Positions 301 through 12,482 of a DNA stretch of 25,394 nucleotides are shown here, piece by piece. Positions within the stretch are counted from its first letter, which is position 1. Every line of letters starts with the position of its first letter. This DNA is from Nitrospirota bacterium (GTDB lineage Bacteria > Nitrospirota > Thermodesulfovibrionia > Thermodesulfovibrionales > BMS3Bbin05): positions 1,575,999 through 1,601,392 of the forward strand of contig CP070669.1 of the NCBI GenBank assembly GCA_020351835.1, written 5' to 3'. The position numbers and the translations under genes were made by a program. The notes under the pieces were generated by a model. That model was not told the DNA's origin. It ran no database searches and saw only the letters and a list, made by a program, of their open reading frames with translations.

Positions 301-513
301 ATGGACCTTAAAGAGCTGAAAAAGATACTTTCCGGTCTAGGGCTCGCCGGCCTTATAGCCGGTGCAAGCTTAATGGCTGCCGGCTGTGCAAGCACTGGCG
401 CAAGCGGTTGAGGAGCAGATAAGGCACCACCGGCCAAAAGCGGCTGAAGTGGTAGCTCCGGTGCAGGTAGCACCGATAATCCCGAAGGGAAAAGTGGTTG
501 AAGTTGATCTTAA
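301..513 (+). CDS. sbtA: selenocysteine-containing radical SAM-modified target peptide (selenobiotic / SbtA-like RiPP precursor); TGA at 409, 445 and 499 read as Sec, TGA 505 ambiguous, TAA at 511
   Basis: Strong Shine-Dalgarno AAAGGAGGTG just upstream of ATG 301. Readthrough product MDLKELKKILSGLGLAGLIAGASLMAAGCASTGASG-U-GADKAPPAKSG-U-SGSSGAGSTDNPEGKSG-U-S. Three TGAs sit in the same SG-TGA context. The two KSG-TGA-S blocks (436-450 and 490-504) differ only at synonymous third positions. SECIS-like hairpin follows TGA 445. Next gene is a radical SAM/SPASM protein. Confidence 0.82.
459..475 (+). promoter_or_regulatory. bacterial SECIS-like upper stem-loop for the UGA at 445-447
   Basis: CGGTGC (459-464) - AGGTA loop - GCACCG (470-475): perfect 6-bp stem, 17 nt total, starting 11 nt after the UGA. 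Loop GU lies at +20/+21 from the UGA, as in E. coli fdhF (UGA-N11-GGUUGCAGGUCUGCACC). Confidence 0.72.
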
Positions 514-11582: not shown

Positions 11583-12482
11583 ATGGAACTGCTTAAGATA
11601 ATTTTCCCAGCTTCAGGGGTAGAAACATATCTGTTCATTCCTCCACTCGTTGCCTTTGTTATATCTTTTTTCTCTTCAATGGCAGGTCTGTCCGGTGCAT
11701 TCTTTATCCTTCCGTTCCAGATGAGCGTATTCGGTTTTACGTCTCCTTCTGTAAGCTCAACAAACTTCCTGTATAACGTAGTAAGTATTCCTGGAGGGGT
11801 GTTAAGATTCATTCGGGAAAAACGGATGTCCTGGCCTCTCATTTTTGTTATAGTTGCTGGAACATTTCCAGGTGTCTTCGCTGGTTACTTTATAAGAATA
11901 AGATACCTTCCCGACCCGAAAGCATTCAAGCTGTTCGTTGGCCTTGTATTGTTTTATATAGGGATAAGGTTGATAAGAGGTTTCAGGAATAAAAGGAAAA
12001 GGGCCGATCAGGGTGATGCAAGTATGTTCGTTATTTCTAATGTCAGTTATAGCCTGAAAAGAATAAGTTACGATTTTAATGGTGAGACGTTCTCGTTCAG
12101 TGTTCCCGCTATGTTCTTGCTGTCCGCTATAGTAGGAATTATCGGTGGCATTTATGGTATCGGAGGGGGTGCCATCATAGCTCCATTCTGTGTTTCTGTG
12201 TTCGGGTTACCCGTATATACTGTTGCCGGTGCCGCTCTTATGGGGACGTTGATAACGTCCGTTGCGGGGGTATTTGTATACAGCATTGTTCCTTTCGGCG
12301 ATGGTATGGCGGCTCCTCCTGACTGGTCCCTGGGAGCGCTTTTCGGCCTGGGGGGGCTTGCGGGTATATATCTGGGTGCGAAGGTCCAGAGATTCATGCC
12401 CGAACGCGTGATAAAGGTAATACTTGCACTAATTATATTCTGGGTATCAGCAAGATATATATATCAGTTTATAGCCGGGTAG
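11583..12482 (+). CDS. second TauE/SafE (TSUP) family permease
   Basis: 299 aa. SSMAGLSGAFFILPFQMSVFGFTSPSVSSTNFLYNVVSIPGGVLRF and GGIYGIGGGAIIAPFCVSVFGLPVYTVAGAALMGTLITSVAGVF. Confidence 0.85.
   Translation: MELLKIIFPASGVETYLFIPPLVAFVISFFSSMAGLSGAFFILPFQMSVFGFTSPSVSSTNFLYNVVSIPGGVLRFIREKRMSWPLIFVIVAGTFPGVFAGYFIRIRYLPDPKAFKLFVGLVLFYIGIRLIRGFRNKRKRADQGDASMFVISNVSYSLKRISYDFNGETFSFSVPAMFLLSAIVGIIGGIYGIGGGAIIAPFCVSVFGLPVYTVAGAALMGTLITSVAGVFVYSIVPFGDGMAAPPDWSLGALFGLGGLAGIYLGAKVQRFMPERVIKVILALIIFWVSARYIYQFIAG

Follow-up and report, generated by a model that had tools for sequence, protein, structure and literature searches.

A probable selenocysteine codon followed by a probable SECIS hairpin in the sbtA selenopeptide gene of a sulfate-reducing Nitrospirota bacterium

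The window, which is the whole stretch of 25,394 nucleotides of Nitrospirota DNA analysed here, contains near its 5' end the short gene sbtA followed by the maturase gene sbtM. Residues 1–26 of the sbtA product, the leader, match the NCBIfam model TIGR04081 with 37.8 bits (cutoff 30.5); this is the model of SbtA family thio(seleno)oxazole RiPP natural product precursors. The product of sbtM matches TIGR04082 (SbtM) with 709.7 bits against a cutoff of 350, and shares 100% of its residues with a protein encoded on a 2.29-Mb contig of an NCBI Nitrospirota metagenome-assembled genome (MAG). The name SbtA is also in use for a cyanobacterial bicarbonate transporter. The rest of the window holds mrp/mnh antiporter genes, NhaA, adk, sat, aprBA, and qmoABC-like genes, a gene content that makes the host a sulfate reducer. 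Within the window there is no tRNA gene and none of selA, selB, selC, and selD. The open reading frame 11583–12482, which adjoins the cation/proton antiporter genes, has a weak match, far below cutoff, to the C-terminal (TauE-like) part of the magnetosome protein MamO (NF040961). The features of the sbtA locus are the following.

165–192, + strand: sigma-70-type promoter-like site upstream of sbtA, TTGACA-16 nt-TATAAT, with 12 of 12 consensus matches (putative function)
290–297, + strand: Shine-Dalgarno sequence AGGAGGTG, 3 nt ahead of ATG 301 (from the sequence)
301–507, + strand: sbtA, selenopeptide (RiPP) precursor of 68 codons with probable Sec37, Sec49, and Sec67 (translation, TIGR04081, homologues)
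409–411, + strand: first in-frame UGA, probably encoding Sec37; a canonical SECIS is missing from the usual distance (conserved in frame)
423–457, + strand: non-canonical hairpin 11 nt after UGA409, loop AAAAGC (RNAfold, weak evidence)
445–447, + strand: second in-frame UGA, probable Sec49, the codon of main interest here (KSG-U-SG context, the family motif)
459–475, + strand: putative bacterial SECIS hairpin CGGUGC-AGGUA-GCACCG for UGA445 (fold, leave-out covariance model, census, covariation)
499–501, + strand: third in-frame UGA, probable Sec67, in the C-terminal family motif SG-U-S-stop (translation, family)
505–507, + strand: fourth TGA, probable stop codon judging from homologues, with a back-up TAA at 511–513
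515–527, + strand: weak SECIS-like hairpin GUGC-AGUUU-GCAC in the 3' UTR (fold)
551–592, + strand: intrinsic-terminator-like hairpin after sbtA, a 15-pair stem and then TATTT in a T tract
640–2253, + strand: sbtM, radical SAM/SPASM maturase (TIGR04082, Pfam Radical_SAM and SPASM)

Translation of the frame from ATG 301 gives MDLKELKKILSGLGLAGLIAGASLMAAGCASTGASG-U-GADKAPPAKSG-U-SGSSGAGSTDNPEGKSG-U-S-U-S-TAA. Glycine precedes all three probable selenocysteine (Sec) residues, which matches the Gly-Cys/Sec substrate motif (PMC9204691). The likely gene model of sbtA extends from 301 to 507, with Sec encoded at 409, 445, and 499, and with UGA505 as the stop codon. In the GenBank record of the MAG contig with the identical SbtM, the protein UCG77609.1 is a 36-residue 'selenobiotic family radical SAM modification target peptide' that ends at UGA409. 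Instead of the 36-residue leader given in GenBank, the gene probably yields a lipoprotein-like precursor of 68 residues, three of them Sec. The promoter-like site 165–192 and the strong terminator 551–592 flank sbtA, and the 5' UTR of about 100 nt has no match in Rfam. As a result, sbtM lies on the far side of a terminator and is preceded only by a weak promoter-like site at 599–628.

The codon T445 G446 A447 is followed by 11 nucleotides (448–458) and then by the 17-nt hairpin 459–475, in which a stem of six Watson-Crick base pairs closes the five-nucleotide loop A465 G466 G467 U468 A469. The hairpin forms the core of both the minimum-energy and the centroid structures calculated by RNAfold. 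It is read in frame, and its translation is (S)-G-A-G-S-T-(D). The preliminary description of the locus, made from the sequence, had reported this codon, spacer, and hairpin, and had stated that the hairpin is read as coding sequence; its coordinates and letters are exact. It had also argued that such an arrangement is unlikely to arise by chance. The window has a single TGA, that at 445, with an 11-nt spacer, a perfect 6-bp stem, and an NGGTN loop. Of 1000 dinucleotide-shuffled versions of the window, with both strands included, four contain this configuration (chance 0.004). A looser pattern, in which TGA precedes some hairpin whose loop contains G[GU], is common and occurs at 21 of the 917 TGA triplets in the window. 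The generic geometry by itself is thus weak evidence, and the claim is carried by comparative data.

A covariance model was built from 78 hairpins of relatives with the window excluded. This leave-out model matches positions 457–477 with 25.9 bits (E = 4e-4), which is the only significant match on both strands of the 25 kb. No Rfam family is matched at gathering scores in the whole window, and at E ≤ 10 the segment 380–620 has only chance-level matches to miRNA and viral families, located on the terminator. The abundance of the loose pattern and the glycine-rich composition of the SbtA core would suit a hairpin formed by chance, or a reassigned code in which UGA is a sense codon for Gly or Trp. 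Set against this are the rarity of the exact configuration in the shuffles, the E value of the family model, and the use of TGA as the terminating codon of six of the 21 long open reading frames in the window, which leave such an explanation a probability next to nil. With TGA as an ordinary stop codon in those six frames, the genetic code is standard, and reassignment has been rejected. The sequence GCACC is present twice, at 424–428 and 470–474, so that the 5' arm of the putative SECIS, GGUGC (460–464), has two alternative partners; the copy at 424–428 also belongs to the hairpin 423–457.

Relatives of the locus were collected by an SbtM-alignment scan with one genome per species, in which 80 loci were taken from at least 579 genomic sbtM loci. 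Searched with a hidden Markov model of the leader, about 75 of the 80 loci proved to contain SbtA genes. Nearly all of these genes contain two to five in-frame TGAs in the context [S/G/A]-U-[S/G/T/N]-G. Some of them have Cys codons at equivalent positions (loci L002, L004, L008, L032, L048, L065, and L070), and interchange of Sec and Cys is common at the same motif positions. A census was made of every in-frame TGA, picked by reading frame only, which gave 188 sites in 70 loci; each was scored for a stable hairpin whose loop contains G[GU] and is centred at +19 to +24. Such a hairpin follows 141 of the 188 UGA sites, compared with five of the 84 Cys codons at equivalent positions and 4.3 ± 2.1 of 188 in dinucleotide shuffles of the UGA sites. 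The segment from +7 to +38, taken from sites that were not selected for structure, has a mean folding energy of -9.4 kcal/mol after UGA and of -5.7 kcal/mol after Cys codons (Mann-Whitney p = 9e-15; p = 1e-10 for per-locus means).

The hairpins at internal sites fall into two spacing classes that are one codon apart, with the loop centre at +20 (26 sites, including UGA445) or at +23 (62 sites). After terminal UGAs, the same hairpin falls in the untranslated 3' UTR, and its stem often includes the stop codon TAG (TAGTGC-GGTC-GCACTA). Two closely related Desulfobacteria loci differ both in the UGA codons and in the hairpin: the peptide ...TS-U-NGGGS-U-SGET-GAGST-GGEK of L003 (934–1000) corresponds to ...TS-C-SGKTS-C-SGET-GGEK in L002, where both UGAs are replaced by UGC and exactly the 15-nt hairpin GGTGCAGGTAGCACC is missing. 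Two loci, L070 (position 509) and L035 (position 1326), have terminal Cys codons and retain the 3' UTR hairpin; they look like recent conversions of Sec to Cys with a relic SECIS.

Covariation was scored in a set of 80 distinct hairpins, chosen beforehand to have stems of 4 bp or more. The preliminary description had pointed to homologues as the place where covariation and a conserved loop GU should be seen, and both are found there. In the 80 hairpins, 89% of the cells pair and double changes occur at all seven stem pairs, the pairing of the inner four pairs being partly by construction because of the pre-selection. The covariation score is 0.62, against 0.23 in shuffled data and at most 0.19 with slid partners. 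The frame-based census, the fold-energy test, and the comparison of L003 with L002 are free of the stem pre-selection. At the second loop position, G466 in the window, all 80 hairpins have a G, and 65 of the 80 loops contain a GU dinucleotide. The consensus of the family SECIS is a 6–7 bp stem with the loop N-G-[G/U]-[U/C/G]-N centred at +20 or +23. Compensatory changes in the stem alter the encoded amino acids while the pairing persists, as in the following stem arms and peptides.

GGUGC...GCACC: G-A-G-S-T
GAUGC...GCAUC: D-A-G-G-I
GACGC...GCGUC: D-A-G-G-V
GACAC...GUGUC: D-T-G-S-V
AGUAC...GUACU: S-T-G-S-T

These substitutions bear on the proposal that the conserved element is the peptide motif G-A-G-S-T, recognized for instance by SbtM or by an export system, with the RNA hairpin arising incidentally from the codons of the motif. 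The reading frame through the hairpin is the same in every case, and motifs rich in Gly, Ala, Ser, and Thr are typical of the SbtA core, as the proposal would have it. However, the residues vary while the pairing is kept (GAGST, DAGGI, DAGGV, DTGSV, STGST, and GAVGT), the same hairpin occurs in 3' UTRs that are not translated, and it is absent after Cys codons apart from the five of 84 and is deleted where UGA has become UGC. A peptide-level origin of the hairpin is thus extremely unlikely.

Accordance among these lines of comparison, together with the TIGR04081 leader, the adjacent sbtM, and the promoter-like site, Shine-Dalgarno sequence, and terminator that sbtA has of its own, makes it highly probable that UGA445 is a Sec codon in sbtA, that the hairpin 459–475 is its bacterial SECIS, and that sbtA encodes a thio(seleno)oxazole precursor. 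On the other side stand the lack of a match in Rfam and the need to read through UGA409, a codon with no canonical SECIS. The analysis shows directly the sequence, the assignment to the family, and the comparative RNA data; SelB binding, Sec insertion, and the chemistry of the product are inferred. The preliminary description had taken the hairpin as evidence for Sec insertion at UGA445 that is independent of the downstream enzyme. Insertion at this codon is supported by the family census, the covariation, the leave-out model, and the loss of the hairpin together with the change of UGA to UGC. The independence does not really hold, because the gene encodes SbtA, the substrate of the neighbouring SbtM.

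Established knowledge of bacterial Sec decoding suggests how the locus would function. Once UGA445 occupies the ribosomal A site, the hairpin 459–475 would be positioned just outside the mRNA entrance. Its apical loop, A465–A469, would bind the C-terminal domain of a SelB molecule carrying GTP and Sec-tRNASec, and SelB would deliver Sec at UGA445 in competition with release factor 2. The ribosome would then melt the hairpin and read it as Gly-Ala-Gly-Ser-Thr. The resulting peptide would consist of a signal-like or lipoprotein-like leader and a core rich in Gly and Ser, most likely with three Sec residues, and would have the C-terminus ...KSG-U-S, set by UGA505. SbtM produced from the adjoining gene would turn the Gly-Sec units into selenooxazoles.

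The preliminary description had ascribed to the hairpin the exact geometry of the SECIS of Escherichia coli fdhF. The minimal E. coli SECIS comprises nucleotides 15–31 counted from the U of UGA, and has G23 and U24 in its loop (PMC8659212). The 43-nt fdhF element used for the comparison has 100% identity to fdhF of more than 5400 E. coli genomes. The spacing part of the claim stands: the 11-nt spacer and the span of nucleotides 15–31 are common to both elements, the letters G-N-U-G-C-A-G-G-U of the 5' arm and loop are located at equal offsets, and G467 and U468 of the window are nucleotides 23 and 24. The remainder does not, since the window hairpin lacks the bulged U17, its nucleotide 17 being G461 paired with C473, and has a five-nucleotide loop instead of the six-nucleotide loop of fdhF. 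Unlike the fdhF element, the window hairpin has a perfect 6-bp stem and is not prolonged by a lower stem as far as the UGA, and the SbtA family has a second spacing class, longer by one codon (loop centre +23). The hairpin consensus of the SbtA family has no bulge, and the bulged U17 is a feature of the E. coli element in particular and is not known as one of bacterial SECIS in general. With the covariance model of SbtA hairpins, the fdhF element reaches only 4 bits, and the term 'fdhF-type' therefore applies only to the spacing and the loop letters.

Downstream of UGA445, the codon UGA499 is separated by 13 nt from the hairpin 515–527. The distance from UGA to loop is 17 nt, as at UGA445, and the invariant G is at +19. 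The stem of this hairpin has only 4–5 bp in the window, and its score is 15.8 bits with a model that includes 515–527 and 11 bits (E = 1.5) with the leave-out model. In the closest relatives, the counterpart has longer stems of 6–8 bp (TTAGTGCAGTTTGCACTAA). The C-terminal motif of the family makes it probable that UGA499 encodes Sec, and many SbtA homologues end in U-S-stop or U-N-stop. The hairpin 515–527 starts just 7 nt past UGA505. An arrangement U-x-UGA is present in eight loci, and in five of them the frame, if continued, passes through the hairpin into unrelated sequence. These five frames and the C-termini of the homologues make UGA505 unlikely as a fourth Sec codon; judging from the same sequences, it is most likely the stop codon, with TAA 511–513 as back-up.

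Upstream of UGA445, the codon UGA409 precedes it in frame, so that a ribosome must read through UGA409 to reach UGA445. In bacteria, SelB contacts the SECIS as well as the tRNA, and a SECIS close to the codon is regarded as necessary. The sequence downstream of UGA409 has no match to the family model, including the leave-out model. The closest relatives, L081, L083, and L084, also have this UGA in frame (...S-U-TGDKAPP...-U-SGEKSGAGGT). The layout in the window is UGA409, 11 nt, the 35-nt hairpin 423–457, one unpaired nucleotide (C458), and the putative SECIS 459–475, which the hairpin thus abuts. The first two nucleotides of the next Sec codon, U445 and G446, take part in base pairs of the 3' arm of the hairpin 423–457. 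For L081, L083, and L084 a comparable hairpin is predicted, and one of its pairs shows a compensatory change (A426:U453 in the window, U:A in L081 and L084, and C:G in L083), and another group of Nitrospirota loci (U-GG-KKGDAQQAPAKSG-U) has an analogous helix of GACGCUCAGC with GCUGAAGCGGC; the covariation of these hairpins that hold the next UGA comes from 4–8 related sequences, with structures drawn from the same data.

Approximately 29 upstream UGAs, mostly in Nitrospirota loci, are without a canonical SECIS and are located 30–110 nt upstream of the only family-type SECIS of their gene. An upstream-UGA layout like that of the window recurs in about 15 loci. Eight Nitrospirota loci (L007, L009, L017, L034, L059, L062, L073, and L074) have two or three UGAs that are 30–51 nt apart; only the last of these has a canonical hairpin, which is in the 3' UTR with TAG inside the stem. 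Desulfobacteria have pairs of UGAs with one hairpin in common, the two codons being 9 or 18 nt apart. Such pairs with a single SECIS hairpin after them occur at the following positions.

L003: 934 and 952
L011: 1120 and 1138
L005: 1077 and 1086
L030: 1297 and 1306
L055: 222 and 231
L071: 464 and 473

It might be supposed that UGA409 is a true stop codon, that the product is the 36-residue peptide, and that the part downstream is untranslated and represents either a relic core or a 3' UTR or attenuator that controls sbtM. The GenBank protein ends at this codon, no canonical SECIS accompanies it, and the hairpins occupy the region between sbtA and sbtM that precedes the terminator. However, a 36-residue product would be a leader only, without a Gly-Sec/Cys core for SbtM to modify, whereas past 409 the reading frame is intact, as are the SG-U-SG motifs and the spacing of the hairpins. 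The closest relatives share the in-frame arrangement despite a divergence of about 42% in SbtM, and the recurrence of the layout in about 15 loci also argues against termination. The end of the GenBank protein loses weight because automatic gene callers cut the relatives at the first UGA as well, giving products of 36 residues in L082 and L084. Termination at UGA409 is therefore very unlikely, and the reading as Sec37 is preferred.

For the decoding of UGA409 and the other upstream UGAs, three readings are possible: a non-canonical SelB site of their own, a canonical SECIS brought near by folding of the RNA, or inefficient read-through. In constrained folds, the stretch between UGA and SECIS forms one closed domain, which begins at a point between +12 and +16, encloses the next UGA, and stops 1–9 nt short of the SECIS stem. 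Such a domain would place the SECIS at an effective distance of 12–20 nt from each UGA on arrival of the ribosome. The exterior paths in the constrained folds are 12–24 nt long and are not significantly shorter than in shuffles; the fraction of shuffles with a path no longer than that observed is 0.1–0.7 at nearly all sites, with a range of 0.01–1.0. It is doubtful that one canonical SECIS serves several upstream UGAs in sbtA genes. If it did, such a 'collapsible spacer', or alternatively a second, non-canonical class of SelB sites, would constitute a mode of bacterial Sec decoding that is so far undescribed. Messages with several UGAs and one recognizable SECIS could be used to test how strict the rule on the distance between SECIS and UGA is in bacteria.

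The layout has a counterpart in the mRNA of eukaryotic selenoprotein P, which also has several UGA-Sec codons. Many SbtA genes have an adjacent canonical SECIS at the last UGA only, often in the 3' UTR, as in selenoprotein P. By contrast, selenoprotein P is decoded with SBP2 and eEFSec and a kink-turn SECIS, and the likeness is one of layout only.

The 'selenobiotic' SbtA/SbtM family was reportedly treated by Haft and Basu in 2011, and the SbtM of Geobacter lovleyi by Lewis et al. in 2021. SbtA genes of this family contain a stop codon in frame, directly followed by a SECIS, and encode at least two Sec residues, and SbtM makes a thio(seleno)oxazole from Gly-Cys/Sec (PMC9204691, PMC11002830). 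The locus in the window agrees with this system in its TIGR04081 leader and adjacent TIGR04082 maturase, both above the cutoffs, and in having UGAs in frame that a SECIS follows at once, with several probable Sec residues per peptide. It differs in that the host is a Nitrospirota MAG, whereas the stated limit of the system is Geobacter and Desulfobacteria, and in the Sec context, which is SG-U-[SG]G as opposed to the quoted motif GGUG (PMC9204691). Further differences are that one of the three probable Sec codons, UGA409, is without a canonical SECIS and that the public record of the peptide is cut to 36 residues. BSepDB makes no mention of the SbtA family, and a literature search on SECIS together with radical SAM returned nothing.

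The SbtA family and its SECIS are thus already known; what is new is a member from a sulfate-reducing Nitrospirota bacterium with a truncated public annotation, and the residual novelty is the decoding of the upstream UGA409. The analysis corrects the gene model of sbtA relative to GenBank and places the SbtA/SbtM selenopeptide system in the genome of a sulfate-reducing Nitrospirota bacterium. The family-specific SECIS consensus could serve for the re-annotation of hundreds of truncated sbtA genes.

Loci with SbtM and SbtA are also present in MAGs labelled as Gammaproteobacteria, Chloroflexota, Acidobacteria, and Planctomycetota/Brocadiaceae (L008, L035, L043, L048, and L053). The range may therefore be wider than Geobacter and Desulfobacteria (PMC9204691), with errors in MAG binning as another possible source of these labels. 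A metagenome scan with a DNA pattern of the leader yielded one new locus only, L086, and the window's own clade comprises four relatives. The sbtA-like gene of L086 (1769–1960) has a TGA within the leader, at codon 12, and is either a pseudogene or the result of a sequencing error. Two sbtA paralogues are arranged in tandem in L050, L058, L059, L062, L070, and L073, and sbtA is located downstream, not upstream, of sbtM in L006, L012, and L016.
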